Below, in pieces: positions 5,178 to 55,660 of a stretch of DNA of 64,000 nt. The notes beneath the pieces are model-generated. The model saw nothing but the letters and a program-made list of their open reading frames with translations. It did not search any database and was not told where the DNA came from. Numbering within the stretch: position 1 is the stretch's first letter; the number at the start of each line of letters is the position of its first letter. Source of the DNA: Candidatus Omnitrophota bacterium (GTDB lineage: Bacteria > Omnitrophota > Gorgyraeia > DTHP01); assembly GCA_023819145.1 (NCBI GenBank), contig JAMWCW010000001.1, positions 2,400-66,399 on the forward strand, in the 5' to 3' direction. The position numbers and the translations under genes are program-made.

Positions 5178-5179
5178 GT

Positions 5180-20416: not shown

Positions 20417-20557
20417 TTATATGGAAAATAAAAAATTAAAAACATACATAATTATTACCTTATGGCTAAAAGGTAGAAAATGAAATATTTATTTTATATA
20501 AAAATTGCACTAGACAATTCCCTAGCGTATTTAAGGGAGGAAAGGGAGGAAAAACGG

Positions 20558-39200: not shown

Positions 39201-40494
39201 AATGGCGGAGGAATTTAAGATTCAAGCATCCCTCAGGCCTTATGCAGAGAGATTGCTGGGTCGTAAACTTGACCTTACCAACCCTGACGGAAAAGATGCA
39301 GGATTCTTATCTGCGTTAGCACATGAGGTTAAAGGAGGGTTAGAAAATCCTAAAGCGGGAGAATTGACCATTGAACAAATGATTTGGAAGATGGAATTTA
39401 CGCAGCAGTTAATGAATTTATTCCAGAGAGGTTCGGGGCATAAATTCTTAGATCTTATGGAAGAAGATAGTCAGGATGCAAGGTGGTATTATTATTGGCA
39501 GAGTAATTTATGGCATGACATTGCGCGTAGCGCAGGTTTACCCGGTTTTCATCCTCCCGGAACATATCATCCGCGCTACTATATATGGAATATCCAGCGG
39601 ACCAGTGGTGTAGGTTATCCTGCAAATTATTTGGTTTCTCCAGCTCAATTACCTCTTTCGGGAGAGGAAAGCATTGAAGTTAGAGGAGAATTAAGAATAC
39701 CGCTTTTGTATGGAGATTTAACTGCTATTGATAGAATTAATTTACAATTAAAAGCCGGTAGCGGGCAATTTGACGAGATAGAAATTAGAGATAGAAGTGG
39801 CAGAAGGGTTGTTTTTAAAATGGGAGGACTGTCGATGGAGAAATGGTATAATATAACCTTGCCCGTATATGGTATTTATTATGGCAGTGCAGATGACCCT
39901 ACAAAACCCACATGGCTACAAGATTCAACCTGGGCGAGGTGGTTGACGCTTAATAAATCTAACGATGCCAATGAAAAAGAAGGTTTCTTCTGGAGACTTA
40001 GGCAAGATGGATATTTAGGTCTAAAAGAAGAGTTTTCTGCAGGTGGTGATATTTATGTGGCATTAGATGAACATGTTGATTGGGGTAACATTAGTGAAAT
40101 TGTTTTTAGAACCTTTGGAACAATGTATGTAAAAGGGATTTATCAGTATACCGATGAGAGAATAGATATTTCTAACTTTACGAACTTAGTAGGGCATTTG
40201 GGAAAAGGAGGAGCGATATTATTTCGTATGAAGCCAGGAGTAACGATAAGCGTTCCCGGAACCGATAATCCCGGTTATAGTCATGCCTATAGACCAGGAT
40301 TAAACCTTGTTACAGAAGGAGGGGATGCCTTAATCATAGATATGAAAGGAAACAAGGTGAGATTTGTAATCCCTGCGATTGGCCCCAATATTTTTGAAAT
40401 AGATTACTATAAGTTTATAAATGAAATAATGGCTGGTTCTGTAGGATATAAACTCCTGCTTTGGGGACCAAAGGAGTGTAGAAAAAATATATAA
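36259..40494 (+). CDS. secreted 1411-aa protein with an N-terminal glucoamylase-like (alpha/alpha)6 region (tentative)
   Basis: RBS AAGGAGGG. Signal peptide 'LLIICFLIIFTKVTSA'. 'MDTNIAAMGMGLVALTLLEQ', 'GWGGLWYHFISPD', 'TMDSALLLLYAKYAG' parallel 'SPTNIGLYFLCLVGAYDLG', 'WKGLYYNWYSTTN', 'SSVDNGWLAAGLIVV' of the 11396 ORF. Confidence 0.4.
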   Translation: MSKKLLIICFLIIFTKVTSALDLSLGEFSLGLSGNQLSPQGGIITPSRQTVLPEPAIRDRDISYIEALLPYIAAYLGVDEIPKDSEGSYFYNTLYWLTLPLVDRFSFDAREVGKEVERRIENWKRQGIEVSSSWKEIIRGDVRRDFAARQIIQEMLDNGLVPTISSVISWMSDPQRAQTYLSPADISFLIEELQMRIFLKEKYPDVLGEPGLTYQRENLSEKEFLLRIMKDKFKFVLDMYTEYSRDGKTYGFILDSNGGMDTNIAAMGMGLVALTLLEQKIKEGVWSYDDFGIKSGTIERMIGNCLNTMEEILNRQPQGEWVEYLLKRFPYPIVKALAAKTKEELVSVNLLDIYTELLARGDLKDEQGVIGNDLKDKVLTEEDIENILKIADTPEIRIRELEKIEKYGWGGLWYHFISPDPKKDLARSKKDVEISTMDSALLLLYAKYAGVYFGGSIKDTIESMLKRFPVSDNSPFYISRERGYCHGWRVVPVQGDTPTGFLPYDYHGDERLILDILRLSLLSEGEITSEDCKIYVNRVMVRKTREGDSVPPAVGFWGSYQGASWTSEYFKNLVDVSSKEEVWLSTNWFGNAVKALMANRHYALQRGYNPYGAVIGSQELPKYGYKMDRGSVPSIIYEKTGKPPDDGERNFAPSQVGVSYLPFESTESLWVQYISNPKLARGLYGFRESYTPGTEFVSPSNYTLNEVGLLLKIENALTGLVWKTMMEDEGTQLALRRAGFNRTDYNHINRSGNLENTLREVMGNGRTLEDAEKLVQAVTDEVRNMVLSQDESKLSYFREYVEYNDQLYEKALNILQGLSITSAPQLAVKVAALKFVIYKNQKFADEMLEAAKDLIKAIKYYGCIEEATSIISSYDYEAVAMWKDWRKDKEYIYILDENSDGNVWDDVSQKLSKAVATDNHFLLVHSQLEEYLTTTQKLYTILPSDSGVISALLNGADYPGGHVKGLRELRNQYGLYKAMEIMAEEFKIQASLRPYAERLLGRKLDLTNPDGKDAGFLSALAHEVKGGLENPKAGELTIEQMIWKMEFTQQLMNLFQRGSGHKFLDLMEEDSQDARWYYYWQSNLWHDIARSAGLPGFHPPGTYHPRYYIWNIQRTSGVGYPANYLVSPAQLPLSGEESIEVRGELRIPLLYGDLTAIDRINLQLKAGSGQFDEIEIRDRSGRRVVFKMGGLSMEKWYNITLPVYGIYYGSADDPTKPTWLQDSTWARWLTLNKSNDANEKEGFFWRLRQDGYLGLKEEFSAGGDIYVALDEHVDWGNISEIVFRTFGTMYVKGIYQYTDERIDISNFTNLVGHLGKGGAILFRMKPGVTISVPGTDNPGYSHAYRPGLNLVTEGGDALIIDMKGNKVRFVIPAIGPNIFEIDYYKFINEIMAGSVGYKLLLWGPKECRKNI

Positions 40495-40529
40495 ATTATG
40501 TGTTTATAATAAGAAAGGAGTGGTTAAAA

Positions 40530-43500
40530 ATGTTTAAGAAAAACACTCCCCGAGGAAAAATCTATAAGTATATTTGTGTGGTTGTGATTGAAATATTTAT
40601 TTTTACATCCATTGTTTCTTCTTGCCCGTCTTTTCCTGCCTTTAATGATATTTTTTTGTTAAGAAGAATCAGAGGAGGAGTTTCTGTGCCGGGAGTGACA
40701 GGATTTAGTCCTGCAAGTGAAAGTGAATTGTTAGCATACCTTTCTTCTTTAGGCATTACTCAAGAAACGGTCCGCGGTTTAGGTGCCACCAGTATGGAGA
40801 TTAGTGTTATTGATGCAAATTCTGATGGAATTCCAGAGGTTATAAAAATTGGAGATTATGTGACGATAGAATCCTCAATAGAAGGTTGGAAAGTTACTAC
40901 TACCTTGAATTCTGGAGAAGAAGTTCCTTTTAGGTTTGTGGGAGATACCCTCCATATTAAAAATCCTAATGGTTCAACAGCATTGATAAACTCCCAGTAT
41001 GTTGAGCAGGTTGACGAAGATTCTGTATCTGGTATAACCTATGATTTCAATGCCTTGCCGGACTTCTTTAGTTCCACTGATTCTGGACAATCACTTCAGG
41101 GATATCTCCAGGCAGGCTTAGAAGAAGATGGGCCAACTTATGGACTTGACGCGATGAAAGATGTAGGTATTGCTACGCTTGTATACGATAAAAGTGGAAA
41201 TCCTACTACCGTAGTCGTTAGATATGACGAAAAAACTTCTACCATGCAGTCATTATTCTATAGAGGACGTCAAGTGCTTGAGTGGATTAGAAGTAGAATT
41301 AAATCTGGTAAGTCTGCTATTGAAGCGGTAGATGAAGCGGTAGATTCAGGTTATGGAAGGACAACAAAGGTCGGTGAAGGTGGAGAATTCGTAGATAAAA
41401 GTAAAAGGGGCTGGATTTTATTAGGACTGTCTTCAGCAATAGCCGCAGGGTTAGCGGTTTTATATACGTATGCCTTTATGAGTGTAGATGTCAGCTCTGT
41501 ACTCACCCAGGTTCTCAATTATGTGTGTGCTACCGTTACGGGAATGTTAACTTATTCTATGTTTAGGCCGGCGGTAGCTCGAACCCTTAAGGGACTGGCC
41601 CTTCCTTTTTTAAATGTTCAAGATTTGGTTCATGAAGTGAAAGAAGACCCGGAAGTTTTAGAAAAAGGACTGCAGAGAGATGCAATGTATGTAATTTCCC
41701 ATTATAGGAATTTCGATGTTTTAGAGAAGGCTTTAGAAGCCACAATTCAAAAGAACGCAGAAGATATATTTGTTAGGGGTCTTATGAATGGTAAATTTCA
41801 TGTTGCATTGATGGGTATGGACAGTCTTAATCCCGCAAGTGTTGTGCGGGAAATAGAACTAATCAGAGATTTTACAGAAAGGACTTTTGAATATCAAGGT
41901 AAGAGGTATAGATATGGTGATTTTATAACTTTCTCATATTTCTTACGTAATCCTGCACATTTTATGCCTGAACAGGCAAGTGCTAAAGGATGGAAATGGC
42001 TTACTTTTATGTATTTAATAGACCTTGTCCAGAACGGGAATAGACTTCCTACCGCATATACTGAGTCTGAATTTGGAAGATACCAGGTTCCTGGTGACCA
42101 GCCTTCGTTCGCCGGGAGTCATCAAATAGTAGATGCTTTACTTGCTAAGGGTATAATCGATAGGGCAAAAGCAGAGCAACTGCTTAAAGAAGGGTTTATT
42201 ACTTTTAATCAACCGGGCTATGTTGACTTGGCTAGTTTCTTAGGTATTCCTGAGGCCGGTGGTAAGGGTAAAGGGAGGATAAACGACTTTCTTATTGTTG
42301 ATGAAGGGAATATCGTGGAAGGTCCTCATGATGGCAATATACATGGTGACCTTTTACGCTGGGCGGCAAAGGTTGCTTGGTCAGAGGAACATCTTACAAG
42401 ACAAGACGGAAGTCCCTTTTACGATATGTATGTTCCTCGTTTAATAATTCCTGAATCGGGAGAATTAAAGGAGTATACAAGGACTTTATTAGAACAGTTG
42501 AATGCTCTTGATGATAAACAAAACTTAGGATACGTAATTGCTGAACAATGGTTTTATAATCTTTTTATGTCCTCTGGCAAGGCTTGGATTAAAGGGGATA
42601 GATTTATTGAGCACGTTTTCCATCCAATTCAACAAACCGCAGACCTTCCCCCCCTGAGACAATTTGCCCAGAGAGTTGCTGATTTGGGAAAAACCCATCC
42701 CGAAATAGCAAAGATTTTCAGACCCCTTGTATTTTTAGCAGAAAGATATGCTGCTACAGAATATCTTCCTGGCTTAGGAGCGATGGTTGGACCGAATATG
42801 ACCTCGCACGACCATTGGGAGTCTTTTGTTAGTGCTTGCATGAGGATGTTAGATATAATTGTTCTTGATGATAGGCCAGAAACTATTCCTAAATCGGTTG
42901 ACCAAAGTTCCAGATTTGTGTATGGAGATGCTACTAAATGGTACCAAAAAGATTTACCTGCTTCGCCTTTCGGAGATTTCTTAAGAAAAGTTTTAGGACT
43001 GGGTAAAGTCGATGTTACTCGTCCTTCCGCTCCAGAACATCATTTAGAGCACAAAGCAGCAGCTGTAGAATATGCTTTTGGAGATGCGAGATTCTTGGGA
43101 TTTATAGCCTGGCAAATGCTCATGGCATATTTACCGGGATATATGGATTTACAGAATTTACCACTGGCTCTCGGAGTCGGTGCTTTTACCGCCCTCTTTG
43201 CGCATTCCATTATGCCTAAGTTGATTGTTCCTTTGATTACCGATTGGAAAACACAAATTAGCCCTCGTCTTGAGACAGCTTTTGCTAGTGGTGAAGCAGG
43301 AGAAATTTTAAAGGCAATAGGGAGTGGATTTTGGGCTTTAGGCAAGGATACGGCTTTGGATTTTCCCTTGAGTTTATTGGGAGACTGGTTTGTTTATATG
43401 CCGATGGTTTTGATTAAACCTTATCTGTTGGCAAAGAATATAATATACAATAAAGTATGGAAAGAATTTATAGGTGGAGAAAGAACTTGGTGGATTAAAC

Positions 43501-43754
43501 CTGTGCATATTGCTTTAGAAGGTGCTGCAAAGGAATGGAAGAAGATGCATCTTGACACTGATAGGATTTTTAGTAATGTAGTTGTGCCTTTAATGGGTTA
43601 TGGGCTCTTCCATTTATTGAGTGAACTCTTAGGCCCTGATTGGAGATGGATGGGAGCACCTCTGTTTGTTTCTTGGATGGCATGGCCAATGGTTTCTAAT
43701 GCCGAATGGGGGGTAAGAAAAATTACGCAATTAATAGAAGCGTTCTTTAGGTAA
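40530..43754 (+). CDS. polytopic integral membrane protein (~1074 aa) with large soluble loops
   Basis: RBS AAAGGAG before the ATG at 40530 (the track ORF starts 30 nt upstream). Signal-anchor 'YICVVVIEIFIFTSIVSS'. At least 7 further hydrophobic helices, e.g. 'GWILLGLSSAIAAGLAVLYTYAF', 'LALGVGAFTALFAHSIMPKLIVPLI', 'PLFVSWMAWPMV'. Confidence 0.45.
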   Translation: MFKKNTPRGKIYKYICVVVIEIFIFTSIVSSCPSFPAFNDIFLLRRIRGGVSVPGVTGFSPASESELLAYLSSLGITQETVRGLGATSMEISVIDANSDGIPEVIKIGDYVTIESSIEGWKVTTTLNSGEEVPFRFVGDTLHIKNPNGSTALINSQYVEQVDEDSVSGITYDFNALPDFFSSTDSGQSLQGYLQAGLEEDGPTYGLDAMKDVGIATLVYDKSGNPTTVVVRYDEKTSTMQSLFYRGRQVLEWIRSRIKSGKSAIEAVDEAVDSGYGRTTKVGEGGEFVDKSKRGWILLGLSSAIAAGLAVLYTYAFMSVDVSSVLTQVLNYVCATVTGMLTYSMFRPAVARTLKGLALPFLNVQDLVHEVKEDPEVLEKGLQRDAMYVISHYRNFDVLEKALEATIQKNAEDIFVRGLMNGKFHVALMGMDSLNPASVVREIELIRDFTERTFEYQGKRYRYGDFITFSYFLRNPAHFMPEQASAKGWKWLTFMYLIDLVQNGNRLPTAYTESEFGRYQVPGDQPSFAGSHQIVDALLAKGIIDRAKAEQLLKEGFITFNQPGYVDLASFLGIPEAGGKGKGRINDFLIVDEGNIVEGPHDGNIHGDLLRWAAKVAWSEEHLTRQDGSPFYDMYVPRLIIPESGELKEYTRTLLEQLNALDDKQNLGYVIAEQWFYNLFMSSGKAWIKGDRFIEHVFHPIQQTADLPPLRQFAQRVADLGKTHPEIAKIFRPLVFLAERYAATEYLPGLGAMVGPNMTSHDHWESFVSACMRMLDIIVLDDRPETIPKSVDQSSRFVYGDATKWYQKDLPASPFGDFLRKVLGLGKVDVTRPSAPEHHLEHKAAAVEYAFGDARFLGFIAWQMLMAYLPGYMDLQNLPLALGVGAFTALFAHSIMPKLIVPLITDWKTQISPRLETAFASGEAGEILKAIGSGFWALGKDTALDFPLSLLGDWFVYMPMVLIKPYLLAKNIIYNKVWKEFIGGERTWWIKPVHIALEGAAKEWKKMHLDTDRIFSNVVVPLMGYGLFHLLSELLGPDWRWMGAPLFVSWMAWPMVSNAEWGVRKITQLIEAFFR

Positions 43755-43766
43755 AAAGGAGCAATA

Positions 43767-46397
43767 ATGAGAACTGTTCGTATGAAAAAATTGAAAATTT
43801 GGATAACAATTTTCTTGCTTTTATCTTTCACAGAACACAGTTTATTTAATGTTTCTCTACCAAATAGCGCAGAAGGATATTTATTAAGAAGGATTAAAGG
43901 TGAGAGTTTCTCACCGACGGTCGTACTGAAAGGTTTAGGTTTTAAGGACGCACTTGAATTAAGAGTTGTAAAAAGCATTGATTCCTTAGCGAGTTTTAAA
44001 GATGGTGTTATTGAAATCTCCGAATCTTTACTTAATTCGGATTATCTCCTTCTTTTGGAAACAGAAAGAGTAGTAAATGAAAGAAAATATGCCCAAGAAT
44101 TTAGGAGCAGTTTAAACTTAACTGAACAAGAGATAAGAGCTTTAGCAAGGGCAAGAGAAGTTGGTCGTTTTCTCAGTTTATCTCCTCAACAACAGGAGCA
44201 TACTTTAGAAGCCCTAAGAGACATAGGAACTTCCGAAGCGCAACAGCTTCTGGTTTTATTTTCTAGAGCAAAAGAAAATGGTTTAGGGAGTGTTTTTGGT
44301 GAGATTTTTGCAGGGATGGGCTCAGTGCGAAACCGAGAAGTTTTTCTAAAGACTAATCCCAATTACAGATTTTTTATAGAGCGGTATGGACAAGGAGATG
44401 AACAAAGATGTCGAGAAGAATTAGAGAAGATTCTGGGAAGAAATATAACGGAGGATGAGTTTTTTAGAATTGTATTGGGAACTGTAGGTAGAGATGCTTT
44501 ATTAAGGCCATCTCAAATAGCACTTATCAGACATTCTGCCCGTGCACCTCCTTCAGAAAAACCAGATATTACGGTTATCGGAGGAAGCACGTGGCCTAAT
44601 TTATTAGCAGATAAATTGCGGGATGAAATACAACAAAACAACGGAGAAGTAACCAGAACAATAACCGTTGTTGTCTCTACCACCGATGATGGCGGTAGTT
44701 CTCGTATTATACAGAATATGTTAAGAGCTACCGATGCTTATCGGGTTTACATATTTTCTCCCGGAGATGCCATTAATGATTGGAAAGGATTTTCCGAACC
44801 AGCAATTCAAGCATTGATGGAGATACGTTTTAAGGGAGGTCGATATAAAAGTATGAGTTTTGAAGAAGCAGTTAAAGAAGCAATTGACCAGGTAGAGTCG
44901 GCATATCGAGGAGGATTTAAAGTAAATGTCAACGGCGAAGAAAAAATACTTTATTTACCCAAAAATTGGCTTGAATTTGTTTCGGATTTATTAAATGTCG
45001 CCCGGCATGTTGACGAAAGGTTTATTGCCACAGGCATTTTGTCTTTGGAGGGTCAGAGTTTAAGAAATCTCTTCTATATTGGCCTTTTAGATTATGCTGG
45101 TTATTTAGATGCAGGAGTAGTAAAAGGTGGAATGGAGAGAGGAAAACTTATAAGAGGAGCGAGCCTTTTAGCTCAAGCCCGTATAAACAAAGGATTTATT
45201 GATCAGGCTAATAAATTAGTGGCTAACATCCTAGGTGTAGGAGATATGGGATGGGTTGTTCCCAGTACCCATGATGAAGGAGTTGTTGTTGCCCGTCTCA
45301 GAAACGGAAATGTTGTGACCGAACAAACAGACATTTCTCGGCCTGCTCCTCGAAATGGAAGAGAACCATCGCGGGTTATAGGGGTCGATGGCAATCCAGT
45401 TTATAATCACGATGCTTTCACTAATCCTTCCCCTATTGACCATATGGAAATATGGTCTCCTGTTCGTAATCCAGATGGTAGAGAAACTTTATTAGATGAA
45501 TATAATGAAGATGGAAGTCGAAAAAGAAAATATCAACAGGTAGCCGGTTATTTCTTACAAGCGGTAGCAGAAACGATAGAAGCTATTAGAAATGCTCAAG
45601 GTGCTATTTTTATAACCTGTGGAAGTATTTTAACCAGTGTGGGAGCGAATTTGGTAGTCAAAGGGATTGTGGAAGCGTTGAGGATAAAGAAAGCAGAGGG
45701 AAAAGTTCCTATTATTTTATCTTTAAAACCACTTACTTCTAATGAGGATTGGGGTATGGAAGAAGATGGTTCTCATATTATAGGCGTGCTCTCTGCGCTT
45801 GAAAAATCCATTCAAATAGCCTTAGGTGATCCAAGTATAAAATTGAGTGATTTTATAACTCACGTCGTTCTCTTTGATACTCAAGATGGAAGCGCTATTA
45901 CTCCTACGATGGCAACTCAGATTAAATCAGGAATGTTACAATTTCCCGATGGTTCATTTGTCTTAGGTGAATATTCACATTTGGATCGAAGACCAAGAGG
46001 AGTGATGGGGGTAGCAGATAATCCCGATTGTTTACCTCAACGCCTTGGACAAATTGGCACAGAGGTAATAAAACATTTAGAAGAACTTACAAGTTCTAAA
46101 GATCCCCAAAAACCTCCACAAGTGATTCCTGGGTTATGGTATACGCACCTGAGCGCAATAAAGAAAGCGTGTGAAGTAAGAAGCCTCAGAGATTTGGGAG
46201 TGGAAAGCAAGAGCGAGGTGGAAGCAAGAATTAGAGCGCGATGGGGAAATTTGGGAATTGTTTATTGTTCCGAGATAGAAGAAGTCATAGAAGATTGGCG
46301 TTGGTATTTGCCCCCGACTTTACATGCCAAAGATTTGGAATATACCTATCGGTTTAGCTTAGAGGCTATATGGAGATTAATAACCGGAGGTATATAA
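43767..46397 (+). CDS. signal-peptide protein (876 aa) containing a YvcK/CofD-family (UPF0052, gluconeogenesis factor / 2-phospho-L-lactate transferase-like) domain
   Basis: RBS AAAAGGAG. Signal peptide 'KKLKIWITIFLLLSFTEHS'. 'PDITVIGGSTWPNLL...TVVVSTTDDGGSSRIIQNML...SPGDA' matches the YvcK 'VVIGGGTGL...AIVTVADDGGSSGRLR...PPGD' motifs. Later 'IFITCGSILTSVGANLVV' matches 'IIGPGSLYTSVLPNLLV' (B. subtilis YvcK recalled from memory). Confidence 0.6.
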   Translation: MRTVRMKKLKIWITIFLLLSFTEHSLFNVSLPNSAEGYLLRRIKGESFSPTVVLKGLGFKDALELRVVKSIDSLASFKDGVIEISESLLNSDYLLLLETERVVNERKYAQEFRSSLNLTEQEIRALARAREVGRFLSLSPQQQEHTLEALRDIGTSEAQQLLVLFSRAKENGLGSVFGEIFAGMGSVRNREVFLKTNPNYRFFIERYGQGDEQRCREELEKILGRNITEDEFFRIVLGTVGRDALLRPSQIALIRHSARAPPSEKPDITVIGGSTWPNLLADKLRDEIQQNNGEVTRTITVVVSTTDDGGSSRIIQNMLRATDAYRVYIFSPGDAINDWKGFSEPAIQALMEIRFKGGRYKSMSFEEAVKEAIDQVESAYRGGFKVNVNGEEKILYLPKNWLEFVSDLLNVARHVDERFIATGILSLEGQSLRNLFYIGLLDYAGYLDAGVVKGGMERGKLIRGASLLAQARINKGFIDQANKLVANILGVGDMGWVVPSTHDEGVVVARLRNGNVVTEQTDISRPAPRNGREPSRVIGVDGNPVYNHDAFTNPSPIDHMEIWSPVRNPDGRETLLDEYNEDGSRKRKYQQVAGYFLQAVAETIEAIRNAQGAIFITCGSILTSVGANLVVKGIVEALRIKKAEGKVPIILSLKPLTSNEDWGMEEDGSHIIGVLSALEKSIQIALGDPSIKLSDFITHVVLFDTQDGSAITPTMATQIKSGMLQFPDGSFVLGEYSHLDRRPRGVMGVADNPDCLPQRLGQIGTEVIKHLEELTSSKDPQKPPQVIPGLWYTHLSAIKKACEVRSLRDLGVESKSEVEARIRARWGNLGIVYCSEIEEVIEDWRWYLPPTLHAKDLEYTYRFSLEAIWRLITGGI

Positions 46398-46415
46398 AAA
46401 TAATGAGGGATTTTT

Positions 46416-48245
46416 ATGGTGAAAGAAGTTTCTAACAAATATGTAGAGATAAAACGTGGACTTTCTCGATTGGAAAAGTCTAAATTAGGACTTTTCTTTC
46501 TTTCATTGTCCTTTGTTTACTCATTATTTATCTTCACCATTAATTTTGACTTTGATAAAGTTAATATTACCCGAAGGATAAAGAGTCCTCTTCTAGATTT
46601 AGCTTCCTTGCGTGATGGAACAGATTTTTTCCCTTTTATGCTCTGGGAGGGGAAATTTACTGAGATTGTTTCTCGTAAAGAAGTTGCCAAGGAAAGAGTG
46701 GCTATTTATATTTGTAGAGGAGAGGGGAGGGTTTTAAAATTTTTAGTGGAGGTTCCCCAGGTTGAGGCATTGTCTAAGGATGACTTTGAAACAGTCTCTA
46801 ACTATGTTGCCCTTAAGATTTATCACGCCCTTACTTTATTTGGTGGAGAAAGTTTAGTTATTAATGGAAGCCCTAAGCTTTATGAGTCGGTCAAAGATAG
46901 GATTTTAAACTCTCTTTCCAAACAGGGAATGGATATAGGAAGTTTCTTAAAAATGGTCAGGGAAATTGACTCTTTTGATATTAACAGATATGCAAATTTA
47001 GAGGATACAGAAAAAACTCAATTAGAAAGACTTGCCAAGCCCATCGAATCACTTTTTGATTGTGAAGAAGATAGCCGTATTGCAATTATTCCTCGTTCAG
47101 AAATGCAGGGGACGGTGATTGGTTTAGATTTTGGTGGATCAGATATTAAAATTTCTGTTTTAATAAATGGAGATTCTAAATTTGAGAAGAAATTAAAATG
47201 GGATTCAAGTCATTTTTCATCTCTTGAAGAGCATAAAAGATATGCCAAAGCTCTTTTAAATTTCGCTCGATATTATGTTTCTTTAGAAGCTGTTAAATCA
47301 AAATATTCTGAATTATTTAAAGAATTTAGAGAAGCGAAGGAAAGATACGAAATTAGCCCTGCAGAGTTAGAAGATTTAGTTGAACTAGCTAAATCTTTGG
47401 GTATTAAGCCGTTGGAAGTAAAAGGGTTGGGTATTAGTATTGCTTGTGCGGTGCATAATGGCAGAATTACTGGGCCCGCACCAATGGTGGGAGGCCTGAA
47501 TATAAATGACCCAACGATAAAAGAGGAGGTGGCAGAATTCGGTTTTTGGATAGGTGAAAAATTATTGGGTTTACAACGTGAAAGAATAAAGATAATTAAT
47601 GATGGTGATGCGGGAGCAGTATATTCTTCAGCCAATCTTGGTTTAAGAAATGTTTTAACTTGGAGTTTAGGAACCGGATTGGCTACAGGATACGTGGATA
47701 GAAATGGGAGGATTGCTACAGATTTACTTACCGAAGGAGGAAATATTGTGCTGGATATGTCTCAGTTTTATAGAGACGATCCCATTGGTCATTCCGTTAC
47801 TGGGGTTCCTGGAGCCCTTCAGCAGTATCTCTCGCAACGCCCAGTGGTGAGAATGGTGATAGAGAAAGGAATTATTGACATTACTAATCCAGAATTCCGC
47901 AACCAGAGAGGAGATATAGACCAGAGAAAGATTCTTATCAGGATTCAAGAGATGTATAGCGATCCTGCAGTAGATAATATAGTAAAAAATCAGATAAAAG
48001 AAATATTTGAGACTATTGGTGTCTATCTTGCCCATGCTGTTGCTCAGGTTCAACCTTTATTAGGGATAGAAAATCTAATTATTTTTGGACAAGTGGTAGT
48101 GGGTGAGTTTGGAAGAATTGTCAAAGAAAAGGCAGAAGAGGTTTTAAGAGAACAATATCCGCAATTGAAAATAACAATTCATTCCGTAGAAAATCCTGAT
48201 TTTGCTCAGGCAATTGGAGCTGGTTATCTTGGATATTCTCCATAA
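46416..48245 (+). CDS. membrane-anchored ASKHA-superfamily sugar kinase (ROK/glucokinase-like) with ~220-aa N-terminal extension
   Basis: RBS GAGGGA. TM 'LGLFFLSLSFVYSLFIFTINF'. Phosphate-1 motif 'VIGLDFGGSDIKISV'. 'IINDGDAGAVYSS' resembles the ROK/glucokinase 'ENDANAAALGE' region. C-terminal 'LIIFGQVVVGEFG'. Confidence 0.5.
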   Translation: MVKEVSNKYVEIKRGLSRLEKSKLGLFFLSLSFVYSLFIFTINFDFDKVNITRRIKSPLLDLASLRDGTDFFPFMLWEGKFTEIVSRKEVAKERVAIYICRGEGRVLKFLVEVPQVEALSKDDFETVSNYVALKIYHALTLFGGESLVINGSPKLYESVKDRILNSLSKQGMDIGSFLKMVREIDSFDINRYANLEDTEKTQLERLAKPIESLFDCEEDSRIAIIPRSEMQGTVIGLDFGGSDIKISVLINGDSKFEKKLKWDSSHFSSLEEHKRYAKALLNFARYYVSLEAVKSKYSELFKEFREAKERYEISPAELEDLVELAKSLGIKPLEVKGLGISIACAVHNGRITGPAPMVGGLNINDPTIKEEVAEFGFWIGEKLLGLQRERIKIINDGDAGAVYSSANLGLRNVLTWSLGTGLATGYVDRNGRIATDLLTEGGNIVLDMSQFYRDDPIGHSVTGVPGALQQYLSQRPVVRMVIEKGIIDITNPEFRNQRGDIDQRKILIRIQEMYSDPAVDNIVKNQIKEIFETIGVYLAHAVAQVQPLLGIENLIIFGQVVVGEFGRIVKEKAEEVLREQYPQLKITIHSVENPDFAQAIGAGYLGYSP

Positions 48246-48501
48246 AAACAAAAGATAAAATAAATTTAATCACTAAATTCAAACTCTAAATATCAAAATG
48301 CGTAGCACAAAATAGGTTTCTAAGACAAATCGTAAAGACAAATGTTCGTAACTCAATAGAAAATGTTTTAATATAGAGGATATTGCTCATACGAAGTAAT
48401 TTTATAGAGAATGTCCTTAGTGGGAAAGATTGGCAATCTGAAGTTAATAAGAGATGAATGTAGTATTTTAAAAAATTTTTTAATTTATGATTCAGCTACT
48501 C

Positions 48502-48529
48502 TTGACACTTTTATAAATTATGCTATCCT
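48502..48529 (+). promoter_or_regulatory. possible promoter upstream of pgi (TTGACA, 16 nt, TGcTATCCT)
   Basis: ctcTTGACActtttataaattaTGcTATCCT; weaker -10. Confidence 0.3.
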
Positions 48530-48594
48530 TTTTAAGGATGCATTAATTTTTTTAACTTTATTAAAATAAAAATAATTAACTTAAGGGGGGAAAG

Positions 48595-50445
48595 ATGAAA
48601 AAGAATTTTGAAGGAATAGTTCTTTTTAGTTTTGTATTTTTGGGCATTTTTGTTATACTATTGAAAATGGACCTTAGCAGTGATTCTATCTTCAGAAGAT
48701 TAAAAATCCCATTTCAATCTACACAAACCAATATGTCCGTGCGTGAGGAACGGTTCCCTTTAGACCCCAATAAAGGAGCTTGGCGAGAAAATCCTACGCA
48801 GGATACCCACTGGCTTACTTTACCTCTTGATTGTCAGGGTATGCTTGAGAAAATCGTTGATTTTGCCCAGAGGCATAAAGGAGAATACACCCATATTGTG
48901 GTTATTGGTATGGGTGGTTCATCTCGTCCGGCAGATGTAATTCGAGGAGTTTTGGGGACAGAAGAAGGTTGGGCAGAAATCCATGTAATGGAAAACCTTG
49001 ACGAAGCAGATATTCAGAAAATTAAAGGAGAAATTGACCCTACGCGCACTTTGTTTATCTCTATTTCTAAATCAGGGACAACTGCGGAAACCAATGCCTT
49101 AACCAGAATTGCTTATGATTGGATTATTCAGGCAGGACTTGACCCCTCAAAACACTTTATTGCCATCACCACTACTTCCCGAGATAGTTTCTTGATGAAA
49201 TTTTTGAAAGATAATAATGTTCCTTTAGAAAATATTTTTGAACATCCTGACCAGGTAGGAGGAAGATACACAATTTTTTCGGTTATTGGGATGCTCCCTG
49301 CAGCCCTTGCTGGTCATGATATAAACACCATTCTTTCCTTCGCGCGGCAAGCAATGGAATCTCAGGTTAAGTATGATTTAGGTGAGTTTTTAGCAAAGAT
49401 GGAGTCAGAAGGAAGAATCTATATGCGCGTAGTTCTACCTGAGGAACTGGCTTCATTAGGCCCTTGGATTGAACAGCTGGTAGCAGAAAGTTTGGGTAAA
49501 ATAGACGTGGTGGGAAGGAATAGAGGCATTGTCCCTGTGTTGGAACGCGATTATGATGAAGGGATTTATAATGAGGGTACCTTTTGTTTAAGAATAAAGT
49601 TGGGCAGTTCTGATGCTCGGGATGGTTTTACTGAGAGAGTAAAGGCAAAAGGAGTACCTGTTTGGGAGATTCAGGTAAATAGTCCTGAAGAGGCAATTGG
49701 TGGGCTCTATTTATTAGAATTTGCTACCGGTATGGCAGGAGTTCTTATGGGAATAGACCCCTTTGATCAGCCCGGAGTAGAAGAAGGGAAGAAAGCTACT
49801 AACAGGATGAAAGAAGAGATCCTTGCCCAGATTAATCAGGGCAAAACTTTAGAAGAGGCCTATGGTGATTTTCTTGAAAGCCAAAGGAGTATTTATCGTG
49901 TGGAGATTGCTCCAGGTGTAACCTTGGATTTTGGAGCCTTAATGCAAGTGGCACGGGATGAGTTTTTTGAATTTATCTGGGAAAAGAAAAAAGATTTAGA
50001 TAATTTAACTGCCCAAGAGATTTATGCACTCGTTCTAGAATTTGCTAAAAGTAAGGGTAAAACTTATGGCGCAATCTTACCCTATGCACAGGAAACAACC
50101 GAAAGAGCAGTTACCTGGAGTCAGGCACGGGGAGTTTTAAGAAGGTTTGGATTGCAAGATATCTATGGAATTGGTCCAGTATATGAGCATTCATTAAGAC
50201 AATATTTACAACAGGGACCTGATAAAGGAATTCCTACTTTTATTGTGGTTAATGACATTGGTACACAGGTGATTCCCGGGGAAAAGATTCCTGGTTTTAC
50301 CACCGGAATGCAGAATGTCTTACAGGCATTAGGTACACAGCAGGCTCTAACTAATGCCGGTAGATATACCATAAGAATAGAAATTGAAGGACCACTTACC
50401 CTCGATAAACTGCGTGTTTTAGAATCATTTTTCAGCGGCATCTAA
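48595..50445 (+). CDS. pgi: glucose-6-phosphate isomerase with N-terminal TM/signal extension
   Basis: RBS AAGGGGGG. PGI signatures 'HIVVIGMGGSSRPADVIRGVLG', 'FISISKSGTTAETNALT', 'DQVGGRYTIFSVIGMLPAALAG' (GGRYS motif). N-terminal hydrophobic helix 'IVLFSFVFLGIFVILL', which canonical PGIs lack. Confidence 0.8.
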   Translation: MKKNFEGIVLFSFVFLGIFVILLKMDLSSDSIFRRLKIPFQSTQTNMSVREERFPLDPNKGAWRENPTQDTHWLTLPLDCQGMLEKIVDFAQRHKGEYTHIVVIGMGGSSRPADVIRGVLGTEEGWAEIHVMENLDEADIQKIKGEIDPTRTLFISISKSGTTAETNALTRIAYDWIIQAGLDPSKHFIAITTTSRDSFLMKFLKDNNVPLENIFEHPDQVGGRYTIFSVIGMLPAALAGHDINTILSFARQAMESQVKYDLGEFLAKMESEGRIYMRVVLPEELASLGPWIEQLVAESLGKIDVVGRNRGIVPVLERDYDEGIYNEGTFCLRIKLGSSDARDGFTERVKAKGVPVWEIQVNSPEEAIGGLYLLEFATGMAGVLMGIDPFDQPGVEEGKKATNRMKEEILAQINQGKTLEEAYGDFLESQRSIYRVEIAPGVTLDFGALMQVARDEFFEFIWEKKKDLDNLTAQEIYALVLEFAKSKGKTYGAILPYAQETTERAVTWSQARGVLRRFGLQDIYGIGPVYEHSLRQYLQQGPDKGIPTFIVVNDIGTQVIPGEKIPGFTTGMQNVLQALGTQQALTNAGRYTIRIEIEGPLTLDKLRVLESFFSGI

Positions 50446-50458
50446 CCGCTAACCTCAT

Positions 50459-50504
50459 CCACCTCGTAGGTGGCCCCCTTGCCCACCTACGAGGTGGGCA
50501 AGGG
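50459..50504. other. GC-rich palindromic element with two mutually exclusive stem-loops, between pgi and the nagB-like gene
   Basis: ccacctcgtaggtgg (50459-50473) is the reverse complement of ccacctacgaggtgg (50483-50497). A perfect 13-bp hairpin cccttgcccacct-acg-aggtgggcaaggg spans 50476-50504. No U-tract follows. ~70% GC in a ~38% GC context. Confidence 0.6.
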
Positions 50505-50515
50505 TCTAAACGAAG

Positions 50516-51370
50516 ATGTTTTCTAAAAATATAGTTCTAAAGACAATTCTAACTTTTATCTTTTTCTCTGCAAATTTTCTCTCTTCTCTAAATCACAATT
50601 TAGCTTTCCGTAGACAAAAAACTTATGCTTATAGTGAACTTTATATTGGAAAAAATAGAGTAATAGTTTCTGCTGATTATGAAGAAATGTCGCAGACTGC
50701 CTGCCGGATGCTCATGGCAAGAGTTCATCAGTTGGCTAAAGAAAAGGAAGAAATAGTTATTGGACTTCCTACGGGAAATACTCCCAAAAGACTTTATGAA
50801 ATCTTAAGGACAGAGTATAAAGATGACCCTGTTTGGAAGAAGGTTATTTTAATACAGCTTGATGAGTATGTGGGAATAGGACCAGATTCATCTTTGAGTT
50901 TTCGCCAAGAATTAGAAGAACAACTTTTAAAATATCTTCCCTTTAAGCGATTCGTAGGTATTGTTGGCGGAGCTTCGGATATAGAAGAAGAAAGAGTGCG
51001 TTACGCAAGAGAAATAGAAGCTTTAGGAGAGATAGATATTTTGGTTTTAGGAATTGGACAAAATGGCCATTTGGCTTTCAATGAGCCAGGTTTTATTACG
51101 GGAAACTCAGTGGGAGTAGTGGAATTAACTCCCCAGACAAAAGAGGTAAACGATGTAGATTTTACCCATGCTTATACCTTAAGTCTTAAAACCATCCTTA
51201 GCGCAAAAGAAGTTATCCTTCTTGCTTCCGGAGAGAAAAAGAAAGAGATTATAGAAAAAACGATTTTCGGGATAGTTACTCCTTTTGTTCCTGCTTCTTT
51301 TCTTCAGAATCATCCTCAAACTACCTTTATACTTGACCGCTCTGCAACATCTGATAAGATATTGAAGTAA
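50516..51370 (+). CDS. nagB: glucosamine-6-phosphate deaminase/isomerase (NagB family) with ~45-aa N-terminal hydrophobic extension
   Basis: 'EIVIGLPTGNTPKRLYEIL' matches NagB 'FVLGLPTGGTP'. 'ILVLGIGQNGHLAFNEPG' matches NagB 'GVGNDGHIAFNEP'. N-terminus 'IVLKTILTFIFFSANFLSS' is signal-peptide-like. No internal start candidate near the canonical NagB N-terminus. Confidence 0.7.
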   Translation: MFSKNIVLKTILTFIFFSANFLSSLNHNLAFRRQKTYAYSELYIGKNRVIVSADYEEMSQTACRMLMARVHQLAKEKEEIVIGLPTGNTPKRLYEILRTEYKDDPVWKKVILIQLDEYVGIGPDSSLSFRQELEEQLLKYLPFKRFVGIVGGASDIEEERVRYAREIEALGEIDILVLGIGQNGHLAFNEPGFITGNSVGVVELTPQTKEVNDVDFTHAYTLSLKTILSAKEVILLASGEKKKEIIEKTIFGIVTPFVPASFLQNHPQTTFILDRSATSDKILK

Positions 51371-51373
51371 AAA

Positions 51374-52933
51374 ATGTTAAAGAAATTTATTATCTTACTG
51401 ATTTTTATTCCTCTGCTTTCACAAAATTCTTTTTTAAAGCGTGATTTCTCTTATAGAAGAATCCTCGCTCCCAGAGCTTCTTTCTATTTGGCTACAAGTG
51501 ATGGCCGACCAATTAGTTTAGAATATGGGCAATTCCCTGATAAAGAACTCTACTTGCGTTTTCTTAACCCCCAAGAAATAAAAGAGGCTGCAATTAATTT
51601 CGCTGCTCGTATTGGTTCCGCAGATGACTTTTTAAAAATTCTTCTTACCTTAGGGGCCTTAAGGCAGTACCAAGCGAGAGAAATTACTCTTATCCTTGAA
51701 GACTGGACTCCGTTTTCTGAAGAAGACTACTTGTTGATTTCTATCTTCAGGATATTTGCGGATAAAGTTTGTCTTGCCTATACCCAAACCAAAGAGACTT
51801 ATTTTTTGCCGATAAAGCCGATCACTCTCCAAGAAAAAGTAACCGGTCCAATACATATTGACTATGTTACATATCTTACACCACGCTTTAAACCGACCGT
51901 AGAGGAGGCAGTTTCCCGTTTGCAAGATGCAGAAAGCGCATTTATTAAAGTAAGCCAAGATTTTAGCGGGCACTGGGAAGTTTCTTTACCTTTTAATTTA
52001 GTAGGGAAAAATGTCGTCATTATTCACTCTACAGAAAACTCAGAAAATATTTTGTCTTTAATTTTAACCAGCGCTTTAATGAGATTAAAAGGGGTAAAGA
52101 CAGTTTCTCTGATTAATACCTATCAGGGCTATAGTCGTCAGGATAAAGAGTTTAAAGAGGGAGAGTGTATCTCGAGCTACATTTTACTTAAAGTATTAAA
52201 TTCCCTTTTAGACCATAACTTTACGGTAAATGTTCACTATGGAAAAAAGAGCGGTTTAATTGATCTTTCTCCAGAGGTCTGGATAACTGATGATGAGGCT
52301 AATCGCCAAACCCTAAACGTCCTCACCCCCCAGGCGGTTTACAACCTCAATGGTTTTGTGCAGTTGGCAGAAGGCTTATTAGGCATCATTAAGAAGGAAC
52401 AGGGTATAACTGATTTGAGAAGTTTGCCCCTTCTTCTTATTTCTCCCGATGACGGAAGTTTCTTTTATGTAAAGGAAGCAGTTAGTGTACTTAGAGACCG
52501 TTATGGAATAGAAGCAATTTCTGGATATTTAAACAAAGAAAGGCTTGGTTCTAGCGAAGTAGTAATTACGGGAGAAATTCTGGAAAATGATGGAAGACCA
52601 CTTACTTTTCCTTATAGTTTAAAAGATTATTATATCTTTATCCTTGATGATGAAACCTCAACTGGTTCTACCATAAAATCTGCAGTTTATCATTTGGTAG
52701 AAAAATTGGGAATAGACTATAATAAGATTTATGCGGGAGTAGTCCATGGAAAATTTTCTTTAGGGACAGAGGAGTTTTATAAACTAAAAGATAAAGAAAT
52801 GCTTCCTCAAGTTTTAGTCACTTTAGACACTTTAGAAGTCCCTGAGGGAATAAAAACAATTTCTTCTTCAGCACTCATCGCGTATTGCATCAAGCGCATT
52901 TTGGGATTAACTGAGCCTATTCGTAGTCCGTAA
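51374..52933 (+). CDS. ribose-phosphate pyrophosphokinase (PRPP synthetase)-like protein with ~160-aa N-terminal extension including a signal-peptide-like segment
   Basis: 'VVIIHSTENSENILSLILTSALMRLKGVKTVSLINTYQGYSRQDK' matches Prs '[45 protein letters not shown]'. PRTase motif 'IFILDDETSTGSTIKSA' matches 'VLVDDMIDTGGT'. Start 3 nt after the nagB-like stop. Confidence 0.55.
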   Translation: MLKKFIILLIFIPLLSQNSFLKRDFSYRRILAPRASFYLATSDGRPISLEYGQFPDKELYLRFLNPQEIKEAAINFAARIGSADDFLKILLTLGALRQYQAREITLILEDWTPFSEEDYLLISIFRIFADKVCLAYTQTKETYFLPIKPITLQEKVTGPIHIDYVTYLTPRFKPTVEEAVSRLQDAESAFIKVSQDFSGHWEVSLPFNLVGKNVVIIHSTENSENILSLILTSALMRLKGVKTVSLINTYQGYSRQDKEFKEGECISSYILLKVLNSLLDHNFTVNVHYGKKSGLIDLSPEVWITDDEANRQTLNVLTPQAVYNLNGFVQLAEGLLGIIKKEQGITDLRSLPLLLISPDDGSFFYVKEAVSVLRDRYGIEAISGYLNKERLGSSEVVITGEILENDGRPLTFPYSLKDYYIFILDDETSTGSTIKSAVYHLVEKLGIDYNKIYAGVVHGKFSLGTEEFYKLKDKEMLPQVLVTLDTLEVPEGIKTISSSALIAYCIKRILGLTEPIRSP

Positions 52934-52996: not shown

Positions 52997-53488
52997 ATGC
53001 TTGATTACTTAGGGATATTTAGAGAACTTAATAAAGAAAAGATTAACTATATCTTAGTTGGTGGTTTGGCAGTCAACTTTTGGGGTATTCCCCGCATGAC
53101 CTACGATATTGATTTACTCCTTTATTTAGAGGATAAAAACTTAAAAAGATTTTTCCAATTGGTAAAAAAATGGGGGTTTAAACCAAAAGCGCCTGTAGAA
53201 TTAGAAGATTTCTTAGATAAGAAAAAAAGAGATTTCTGGATTAGAGATAAAAATATGAAAGCCTTTACCTTGGTTAATTCCCGATGGGCAATTTCTGAGA
53301 TTGATATAATCATTAATACTCCACTGGATTACAAGAAAGCAATTAAGAAAGTAAAAAAATTTGTTCTAAAAACAATACCCATACCTGTCATTTCTCTTGA
53401 GGATTTAATCAAGATGAAAGAGGGCTCAACGCGGCTTCAGGATAAAAATGATGTAAAGAATCTCAAAAAAATTTTAAGTAAAAGATGA
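52997..53488 (+). CDS. nucleotidyltransferase-fold protein (minimal Pol-beta-like NTase; possible toxin/antitoxin component)
   Basis: 'ILVGGLAVNFWGIPRMTYDIDLLL' fits the hG[GS]x9-13Dh[DE]h NTase signature. Basic, 163 aa. Confidence 0.45.
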   Translation: MLDYLGIFRELNKEKINYILVGGLAVNFWGIPRMTYDIDLLLYLEDKNLKRFFQLVKKWGFKPKAPVELEDFLDKKKRDFWIRDKNMKAFTLVNSRWAISEIDIIINTPLDYKKAIKKVKKFVLKTIPIPVISLEDLIKMKEGSTRLQDKNDVKNLKKILSKR

Positions 53489-55195: not shown

Positions 55196-55660
55196 ATGAA
55201 AAAGATAATAGGAGGAGTGATCGTTGCAACAATAATATTAATTCCCCTGAATGTTTTAGCAGTTGAGGTAAGCAATACACAGTTTGGCGCGATGGTACAA
55301 GATAGCATTACAGAAACTACGATTCAAGGAATGCGAATAAGCGGTCCTCAATTAAGGGATCTGATTGTTCAGCCGCCAGCTTTTCTGCAGGCCGAAATTA
55401 ATGCTATCGTTGGAATATTTAATGCGATTGATATAGAGGGGCTTGCAAGCTCCGGTAAAACGGTCTCGGAGATAGTTAGTGAAAATCAGGCAGCATTAGA
55501 AGCAATAGTTAGACGATTACTAATAGCTCATGTCTTAAAGACAAAAGGTATCGCAAACCAAGCTGCTAAGCAAGAGGCAGAATTGGTTGTTAATGGGATT
55601 CTTCGAAGTGAAGCTGGCAGAGCTTTTCTCAATCAAACAATAACGAATTTAGTGGATTAG
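55196..55660 (+). CDS. small secreted alpha-helical protein (154 aa)
   Basis: RBS GAAGGAGGGAG. Signal peptide 'IIGGVIVATIILIPLNVLAVEV'. Confidence 0.45.
   Translation: MKKIIGGVIVATIILIPLNVLAVEVSNTQFGAMVQDSITETTIQGMRISGPQLRDLIVQPPAFLQAEINAIVGIFNAIDIEGLASSGKTVSEIVSENQAALEAIVRRLLIAHVLKTKGIANQAAKQEAELVVNGILRSEAGRAFLNQTITNLVD

Follow-up and report, generated by a model that had tools for sequence, protein, structure and literature searches.

The gene at positions 43767–46397 (+) of a 64,000-nucleotide (nt) stretch of Candidatus Omnitrophota bacterium DNA, hereafter the window, is a single uninterrupted open reading frame (ORF) of 876 codons plus a stop codon, and its product is an enlarged architectural variant of the YvcK/GlmR family, from a small clade in which every named member belongs to Omnitrophota. 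The best explanation, to which we give a probability of about 55%, is that this divergent YvcK/GlmR-clade protein carries out the nucleotide-sugar step of a membrane-targeted hexose/hexosamine-phosphate module, present here as the unfused form of a module found within giant proteins. Gene order in the window and fusion in relatives tie the protein functionally to a ROK-like kinase and other sugar-phosphate enzymes, and its whole gene cluster bears a conserved, apparently undescribed N-terminal tag, which is the most interesting feature of the locus.

YvcK/GlmR proteins are small cytoplasmic proteins that steer carbon into cell-wall precursors; canonical YvcK is a soluble protein of ~320 residues, usually encoded in a yvcJ(rapZ)–yvcK–whiA context. 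The initial annotation of this DNA had proposed a YvcK/CofD domain within the 876-residue product, and both profile and structure comparisons bear this out. First, the Pfam CofD hidden Markov model PF01933 matches residues 268–644 at 62.2 bits, above its gathering score of 30 (E = 6.1e-17), over profile positions 1–209 of 290 only. The hallmark motifs quoted in the annotation are all found (GGSTW at residue 272, DDGGSS at 307 and CGSILTS at 618), along with SPGD at 331 and GANL at 626. Second, an AlphaFold model of residues 196–725, built on an alignment of the same module from 12 relatives with those residues of our protein (alignment A2), reached a predicted local distance difference test score (pLDDT) of 75.5 and a predicted template modelling score of 0.79. 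Searched with Foldseek, this model returned UPF0052/YvcK crystal structures only (2ppv, 2hzb, 2o2z and 2q7x; E 2e-12 to 4e-8, target-normalised TM-scores 0.57–0.70) and nothing else of significance. Third, the clade profile from A2 retrieved five YvcK/UPF0052 crystal structures from the PDB at E ~1e-26 and matched no CofD structure there; a single-sequence search of the PDB had reached at best E ~0.007, for Bacillus halodurans YvcK.

Together, these comparisons indicate that the core has the YvcK fold and lies nearer YvcK than CofD, and an identical NCBI entry, from a 221-kb contig, is named 'YvcK family protein [Candidatus Omnitrophica bacterium]'. With the YvcK/GlmR proteins of B. subtilis, Listeria and the solved structures (2o2z, 2hzb, 2q7x, 2p0y and 2ppv) it shares a Rossmann-like fold, and it has in common with them the GGxxG-like, DDGGSS, PGD and G.GS..TS..N motifs. 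The protein is nevertheless not a canonical YvcK: a YvcK/GlmR-type module, and not CofD proper, is set in a much larger chain that begins with a Sec-type hydrophobic leader, much as the annotation had described.

Relatives are few. An exhaustive phmmer search with the protein against 1.84 billion representative proteins found only 35 at E ≤ 1e-3, the query included; the query aside, one matched at E = 9.6e-52 and all others more weakly than 1e-12. An orthologue fragment, P0002, has 49% identity and shares the leader, the N-terminal domain and the start of the core at 45–49%. Four relatives (P0006, P0008, P0009 and P0035) have 590–920 residues, and most others are multi-domain proteins of 1,300–3,900 residues. 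All 6 of the relatives with a named source, five of them drawn from ten that were looked up, are proteins of Omnitrophota/Omnitrophica metagenome-assembled genomes (MAGs). The protein is thus a free-standing representative of a small clade that has diverged strongly within the YvcK/GlmR (UPF0052, CofD-like) superfamily. Homologue searches by word index, run with the protein or with the clade profile, came back nearly empty, and scans of genome and metagenome contigs with an alignment of the orthologues (A3) found nothing.

The functional link comes from the gene's neighbours. It is the second of six tightly spaced same-strand genes (40500–52933, +), and its ATG lies only 12 nt past the stop of the first. 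That first gene (40500..43754) encodes a 1,084-residue polytopic membrane protein of unknown family, for which Pfam gave nothing useful at E ≤ 10; the same gene, 1,079 residues long there, also precedes P0002 on another contig (L001), so that this gene order is conserved. Downstream follow genes for a 609-residue ROK-like kinase (46416..48245), a 616-residue glucose-6-phosphate isomerase (PGI)-like protein (48595..50445), a 284-residue NagB-like glucosamine-6-phosphate deaminase (50516..51370) and a 519-residue ribose-phosphate pyrophosphokinase-like (Prs-like) protein (51374..52933), all on the + strand. The last three retain their catalytic motifs and so resemble working enzymes: SKSGTTAET, ESLGK and DQPGVEEGK in the PGI-like protein, LDEY and NGHLAFNEPG in the NagB-like protein, and FPD.E.Y, YSRQDK and DDETSTGST in the Prs-like protein. 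The assignments in the cluster all score under the NCBI equivalog cutoffs, which marks these proteins as divergent paralogues.

The ROK-like neighbour has a weak ROK hit, and phmmer found nothing for it in the PDB. It is homologous to part of several fused proteins, in which it matches the segment just C-terminal of the YvcK-like module (P0020, E = 4.5e-39; P0031, 3.6e-35; P0028, 3e-18). The gene order in the window thus equals the domain order in these fusions, YvcK-like and then ROK-like. Other loci and fusions show related pairings: in L002, two HAD phosphatase-like genes come next after the YvcK-like gene, and their products match modules of P0027 and P0033; in L005, a PMM-like gene comes after the YvcK-like gene; and further fused relatives, inspected by eye, carry hexokinase-like, phosphoenolpyruvate (PEP)-utilising, PGI-like and PMM-like regions. 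Because the same modules are joined in the same order in giant relatives, the best reading of the window cluster is as an unfused version of a 'sugar-metabolism module' belonging to Omnitrophota giant proteins.

Giant Omnitrophota proteins with signal peptides or membrane anchors have been reported to carry PGI, PMM/PGM, ROK, hexokinase and HAD domains, and in the passages concerned neither preprint commits to a location for these sugar-metabolism domains (10.1101/2023.11.21.568195; 10.64898/2026.06.07.730766). YvcK and CofD go unmentioned in the main text of both, as does the tag described below in those of their passages that were retrieved by term. The giants, named 'Archaeovorins' by West-Roberts et al. 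in 2023 and assigned a 'Module 2 sugar metabolism' in passages of the 2026 preprint, come from the same phylum, contain the same YvcK-like module together with ROK-, hexokinase-, PGI-, PMM-, HAD- and PEP-utilising modules, and start with the same kind of N-terminal leader; in the window, by contrast, every module is encoded by a gene of its own and bears a tag of its own. A PilZ gene stands immediately after the run of tagged enzyme genes in locus L006 (10903–11286). West-Roberts et al. describe, in the relevant passage, a PilZ gene downstream of giant Omnitrophota genes (10.1101/2023.11.21.568195), and the L006 arrangement fits the cluster as an unfused equivalent of a giant gene. The protein studied here is a small, tractable entry to giant multi-enzyme proteins that are themselves too large to express.

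All six proteins of the cluster share an N-terminal layout: a basic N-terminus, a hydrophobic stretch of 10–20 residues, a polar spacer of 7–18 residues and then the motif [LFYA]-R-R-[IV]-[KR], centred on an Arg-Arg pair (RR). In gene order the motif reads FLLRRIRG, LLRRIKG, NITRRIKS, SIFRRLKI, LAFRRQKT and FSYRRILA. It occurs in 6/6 consecutive genes of 40500–52933 and in 0/17 of the other leader-bearing ORFs of the window. A further 23 tagged, enzyme-type proteins were found on other contigs, those with named sources being from Omnitrophota. Among 29 tagged sequences, the residue before the pair is L, F, Y or A in 26/29, position +2 is I or V in 20/29 and position +3 is K or R in 24/29; the chance of finding RR[IVLTAQ] is ~0.08 per sequence, even when each sequence's own composition is used. 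The tag also separates two sets of proteins within the same genomes, the 'metabolic' and the 'classical secreted'. Over six non-redundant loci, 24 of the 47 leader-bearing ORFs are tagged, all within runs that hold enzyme-type proteins, and the leaders without a tag are those of classical secreted proteins (GH144, CBM11, OpgG-like and giant proteins), often with AXA-like cleavage sites.

The tag persists across considerable divergence. It is present on the orthologous pair in L001, on all three L002 genes, on both L005 genes (as an R-K variant) and in NagB-like relatives down to 38–43% identity. Runs of eight consecutive tagged genes occur in L006 and in L009, the latter from an Omnitrophota MAG; they encode guanylate-kinase-like, ChaN/Tiki-superfamily (PF04187), PGM/PMM, PGI, uridine-kinase-like and NagB proteins and some proteins of unknown family, with PPDK_N-like and Prs proteins in L009 in addition. 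The PilZ and LeuRS genes that flank these runs are leaderless. Altogether, the tag was observed at 40500–52933 of the window and in L001, L002, L005, L006–L010 and L011, for the most part on nucleotide- and sugar-phosphate enzymes of families that are ordinarily cytoplasmic, and the housekeeping genes of these loci lack it. A genome scan with a NagB alignment, which is dominated by canonical NagB, gave two Omnitrophota loci only, one tagged (L011) and one with a leaderless plain NagB (L020); Omnitrophica CG07 has a plain leaderless NagB, and another MAG has the variant FRIIR. The tag is thus confined to some lineages within the phylum. None of the NCBIfam sorting-signal models matched it, and no description of it was found in the literature searched.

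With Sec signals the tag shares a basic N-terminus and a hydrophobic stretch, and its invariant Arg-Arg followed by a hydrophobic residue and Lys/Arg is reminiscent of the S/T-R-R-x-F-L-K of twin-arginine translocation (Tat) signals. A Tat signal was nonetheless rejected as a candidate: the pair stands 7–18 residues after the hydrophobic stretch instead of before it, and no hydrophobic stretch follows. The order of the elements and the lack of a consistent AXA site suggest that the tag fits neither the Tat nor the Sec class. The annotation's cleavable-looking signal peptide found no support in this respect, for no plausible AXA site follows the hydrophobic stretch in our protein or in most tagged proteins; our protein has the basic and hydrophobic regions and no AXA-like site within 3–7 residues of the hydrophobic stretch. 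Many tagged leaders contain a Pro, Gly or Asn break, and we considered a PglC-like re-entrant helix–break–helix in which the RR caps the return arm; the residues leading up to the RR form a polar, in many cases acidic segment, which makes a location in the membrane unlikely. Separately, the ChaN/Tiki-superfamily proteins (PF04187, Cofac_haem_bdg) of L006 (2879–3754) and L009 (4744–5667) are themselves RR-tagged and lie inside tagged clusters. Tiki trims the N-terminus of Wnt, and the PF04187 protein is on that account a speculative candidate processor of the tag; no homologue of this superfamily was seen among the large ORFs of the window.

Compared with YvcK/GlmR proteins, the 876-residue protein gains the leader and RR tag, a 150-residue N-terminal domain and a 70-residue pre-domain, and within the fold it differs in a ~57-residue clade-wide insertion, two long loops of its own and a C-terminal third that cannot be aligned. 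The leader (residues 1–22; 43767..43832; all features given here are on the + strand) consists of a basic MRTVRMKKLK and the 12-residue hydrophobic stretch IWITIFLLLSFT, with a modelled helix at residues 2–26. Residues 27–48 are predicted to be a disordered linker containing the tag motif LLRRIKG (residues 39–45, RR at 41–42; 43881..43901), which lies 18 residues past the hydrophobic stretch and has a pLDDT of 28–36. The orthologue P0002 keeps this motif as SFRRVKG while the neighbouring linker sequence varies.

The N-terminal domain (residues 46–195; 43902..44351) is modelled as three short strands and a helical bundle, with pLDDT ~70–88 over residues 63–195. It is found in orthologues only, matched by P0002 alone (E = 6e-22), and residues 46–195 have neither a Pfam match nor a fold match in the PDB. 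A helical pre-domain (residues 196–265; 44352..44561) carrying NPNYxFF..YG ... T.RSF.EIV.G is present in most of the clade, as judged from A2 and from hit ranges that start near residue 196. The ~250-residue N-terminal extension of the initial annotation thus amounts to 265 residues. At E ≤ 10, Pfam gave nothing useful for the N-terminal 268 or the C-terminal 151 residues.

The YvcK/UPF0052-like core begins at residue 266 and extends to about residue 805 (44562..46181), as delimited by PF01933, A2, the clade profile, AlphaFold and Foldseek, with further motifs NWLEF at 400, LRNL at 432, EQTDIS at 519, EKSIQ at 679 and LWYTH at 790. The annotated insertion is present and clade-wide: at about residues 340–425, some 57 extra consensus positions separate the PGD and S..N(L) motifs, and clade profile positions 149–222 correspond to just 17 residues of 2hzb. 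Two additional long loops, at about residues 445–480 and 543–598, are specific to our protein and both have low pLDDT. The ~150-residue C-terminal extension stands only in part, since the family alignment (A2/A4) runs on through ERS..ALG...HV and RG.xV...Y(N/T) to about residue 805; about 70 residues are truly extra, and the rest belongs to the final third of the fold, which had gone unrecognised. That the core ends near residue 805 is suggested by family motifs together with a low-confidence model, and the helical tail beyond it (residues 806–876; 46182..46394) has no detectable relatives and low pLDDT.

Two other segments stand out among the relatives. A repeated HExxH-like segment, YHE[LY][VI]SHI, occurs in P0007 (residues 46, 1017 and 2218) and P0012 (residue 2076); in P0007 it lies ~70–150 residues ahead of both YvcK-like modules and could represent a metalloprotease-like module or a linker. 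No relation between this segment and the N-terminal domain of our protein was detectable, and the idea that residues 46–195 are a degenerate YHELVSHI segment, which precedes the YvcK-like modules in P0007 and P0012, was dropped as statistically unsupported, P0002 being the only match. Another conserved N-terminal region, ILNLPxPG...P(L/F)xFDF(I/V), is found at 10001–18018 of L004 (P0031 and the next gene), in P0005 and in P0015. In several of the giant relatives, and also in the gene next to P0031, it stands behind a classical signal peptide.

Residues known from characterized family members bear on function. In Listeria GlmR (YvcK), D40, D41 and N198 are needed for uridyltransferase activity, which forms UDP-GlcNAc (uridine diphosphate N-acetylglucosamine) from GlcNAc-1-phosphate and uridine triphosphate (UTP), and Y265 and R301 of B. 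subtilis GlmR bind UDP-GlcNAc (PMC10128056). The DDGGSS (residues 307–312) and GANL (626–629) motifs of our protein align with the DDGGSS and PNL of 2hzb and 2o2z, which places D307, D308 and N628 at the three Listeria positions; by this motif alignment, as distinct from a solved structure, all three uridyltransferase residues, the Asp-Asp-Asn of Listeria GlmR, are retained, in keeping with the nucleotide-sugar role that the annotation had suspected. Across the clade, the first Asp and the GG of DDGG, the GD of PGD and both Ser of GS..TS are invariant or nearly so in A2.

These residues and the gene context suggest a mechanism. The shared tag would bring the module to the cytoplasmic membrane by the Sec/signal recognition particle route. 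There, the protein may bind a nucleotide-activated sugar or transfer it, in the manner of a GlmR-like uridyltransferase or UDP-sugar binder, and so act as one step of a hexose/hexosamine-phosphate module, the remaining steps of which would be supplied by the neighbouring ROK-like kinase and the PGI, NagB-like and Prs-like enzymes and, in related Omnitrophota, by PMM/PGM and HAD phosphatases. PGI, NagB and GlmR all act at the fructose-6-phosphate/glucosamine-6-phosphate branch point, which makes a nucleotide-sugar role for the protein coherent, not proven. A step in envelope polymer synthesis fares less well: the context is instead one of hexose/hexosamine-phosphate interconversion (ROK, PGI, NagB, Prs, PMM and HAD). 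Action at the envelope, which the annotation had suggested, is plausible; a periplasmic location is disfavoured by the dependence of these enzymes on ATP and phosphorylated substrates.

On which side of the membrane this would happen is a closer question. We judge it an even bet that the catalytic part lies outside the cytoplasm, and give a smaller, still considerable weight to the cytoplasmic face, with the remainder going to other arrangements. Several observations point outside. The N-terminal flanks of tagged leaders carry a net charge of +2 to +5 (+5 in our protein), and the first 15 residues past its hydrophobic stretch are neutral or acidic. Leaders are present in 16 of the 28 phmmer hits that start with Met, the query included, and several of the giant ones end in classical AXA-like sites. 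In addition, genes for secreted glycoside hydrolases precede the tagged cluster in the same orientation, and the gaps are tiny. Standard topology rules, together with the classical signal peptides on the fused relatives, would place the catalytic part outside the cytoplasm, and the protein itself may be anchored in the membrane.

Six points weigh against the explanation that we favour. First, chemistry that depends on adenosine triphosphate (ATP), UTP or phosphoribosyl pyrophosphate (PRPP) has no obvious supply of energy or substrate outside the cytoplasm. Second, the hydrophobic stretch of our protein, at 12 residues, is too short for a stable transmembrane helix, and there is no evident signal-peptidase site. 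Third, neither clade profile aligns the canonical C-terminal third, which contains the B. subtilis residues Y265 and R301, and the model has low confidence there. Fourth, A2 shows variation within the clade at the second DDGG Asp and at the PNL Asn, so that some members may be non-catalytic. Fifth, the full-length model is poor (pLDDT 57.8). Sixth, TIGR01826, the curated NCBIfam model of the YvcK subfamily, gives the protein 45.4 bits, below its cutoff of 196.

The leading alternative, which we regard as a real possibility at rather less than even odds, is that the hydrophobic stretch only holds the enzymes at the cytoplasmic face, on the inner leaflet or on a membrane partner such as the 1,084-residue protein. 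The RR would then be a retention or topology signal, and a very small cell would have its metabolic assembly bound to the membrane. Among the tagged enzyme families, at least five depend on ATP, UTP or PRPP, and all the recognisable ones except the ChaN-like use ATP, UTP, PRPP or phosphorylated sugars, with catalytic motifs intact. Basic residues lie on either side of the hydrophobic stretch, and several C-side flanks are as basic as the N-side; no consistent AXA site is found across tagged leaders; and the split is strict, classical secreted proteins of the same loci lacking the RR and enzymes having it. In passages of the 2026 preprint, 46% of long Omnitrophota proteins are read as membrane-anchored with cytoplasmic domains (10.64898/2026.06.07.730766). 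Against such a tether, the positive N-terminal flanks make the N-out orientation unfavourable. The stretches are uniformly hydrophobic, not amphipathic, and the polar and acidic spacers make a re-entrant hairpin unlikely. Moreover, a generic 'positive-inside' role needs no invariant RR with fixed neighbours, and the fused relatives bear classical signal peptides of the cleavable type.

A bolder reading of the tag can be held only tentatively, and we think it on balance unlikely: leader plus [LFYA]RR[IV][KR] may be a hitherto undescribed protein-sorting signal of some Omnitrophota that exports a complete ATP-dependent set of nucleotide- and sugar-phosphate enzymes (YvcK-like, ROK, PGI, NagB, Prs, PGM/PMM, HAD, guanylate-kinase-like, uridine-kinase-like and PPDK-like). 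They might end up in the periplasm, on the cell surface or in an attached prey cell, and the RR would be a further site for sorting or processing, with the ChaN/Tiki-superfamily protein of the same clusters as its possible reader. Were this so, a metabolic pathway would be running outside the cytoplasm of an ultra-small, probably predatory bacterium. The division that the RR tag makes between metabolic and secreted proteins renders the choice testable, between nucleotide and sugar-phosphate chemistry outside the cytoplasm and a tether on its inner face, in ultra-small and possibly predatory bacteria. The YvcK fold here is enlarged, apparently membrane-tagged and linked by gene order or fusion to a sugar kinase and sugar-phosphate enzymes.

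The clade variation at the second Asp and the PNL Asn also bears on a different alternative, in which the YvcK-like core is enzymatically dead and serves as a sensor of sugar nucleotides or sugar phosphates that regulates the neighbouring enzymes, as B. subtilis GlmR regulates GlmS. Passages of earlier work describe B. subtilis GlmR as acting by binding UDP-GlcNAc and partner proteins (PMC7525490, PMC6171935), and the neighbours PGI and NagB stand at the same fructose-6-phosphate/glucosamine-6-phosphate node that GlmR controls. Such a role is improbable in our view, given that the protein itself keeps D307, D308 and N628 and that its clade shows scarcely any change in the first Asp and GG of DDGG, the GD of PGD or either Ser of GS..TS; nor was a GlmS gene seen among the window ORFs of at least 150 residues. 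In the same set of ORFs, no rapZ/yvcJ or whiA was seen, a further difference from canonical YvcK loci.

Two last alternatives are very improbable. A CofD/FbiA-type 2-phospho-L-lactate transferase of coenzyme F420 biosynthesis would share PF01933, a family that bears the name CofD and a superfamily whose chemistry is transfer from a nucleotide-diphospho donor, but NCBIfam returns the YvcK subfamily model only, the clade profile and the structural model match YvcK/UPF0052 structures without any CofD-specific match, and the window's annotated ORFs showed no gene related to F420. Equally far-fetched is an ordinary cytoplasmic YvcK made to look longer by a misassigned start codon, a frameshift or a chimeric assembly, for which the ~320-residue, leaderless form of canonical YvcK is the sole argument: the ORF is continuous, a strong ribosome-binding site (AAGGAG, 43755..43760, +), read directly from the sequence, stands 6 nt upstream of the first ATG, no Met occurs between residue 6 and about residue 185, base composition is even along the gene and region, P0009 and P0035 show the same order of parts, and P0002, on the independent contig L001, has the same leader, tag, N-terminal domain, core start and upstream gene. 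The fusion artefact from a frameshift against which the annotation had warned is thereby excluded, the layout recurring in P0002 at 45–49% identity.

A scan for promoters and terminators found no more sites than in shuffled sequence and no clear operon boundary. The only sizeable gap within the six-gene cluster (349 nt, 48246–48594) contains a promoter-like site, TTGACA-16-TATCCT with an upstream TG (48502–48529), which suggests a second transcription start before the PGI-like gene. Ahead of the cluster, and separated from it by a 5-nt gap, a long same-strand array (8180–40494) resembles a locus for the use of beta-1,2-glucan: it encodes a GH94 phosphorylase without a leader (8180–10633), two CBM11 proteins, an MdoG/OpgG-like protein (15921–18503) and three proteins with 'Glycoamylase'/GH144-type domains, among them one of 3,803 residues (20480–31891) and one of 1,411 residues (36259–40494). 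Right after the tagged cluster, an AbiEii/DUF6036-type nucleotidyltransferase (52997–53488), probably a toxin–antitoxin component, breaks the synteny with L009. Further downstream is a pair consisting of a small leader-bearing protein (154–177 residues) and a ~1,700-residue protein without Pfam domains, which recurs downstream of the tagged cluster at three distant loci (window 55196–55660 and 55681–60909; L009 12823–18464; L006 15883–20864). Near the start of the window, on the − strand (4245–7969), three genes form a signalling unit that combines a FIST-domain protein with a GAF histidine kinase and a GGDEF-domain response regulator.

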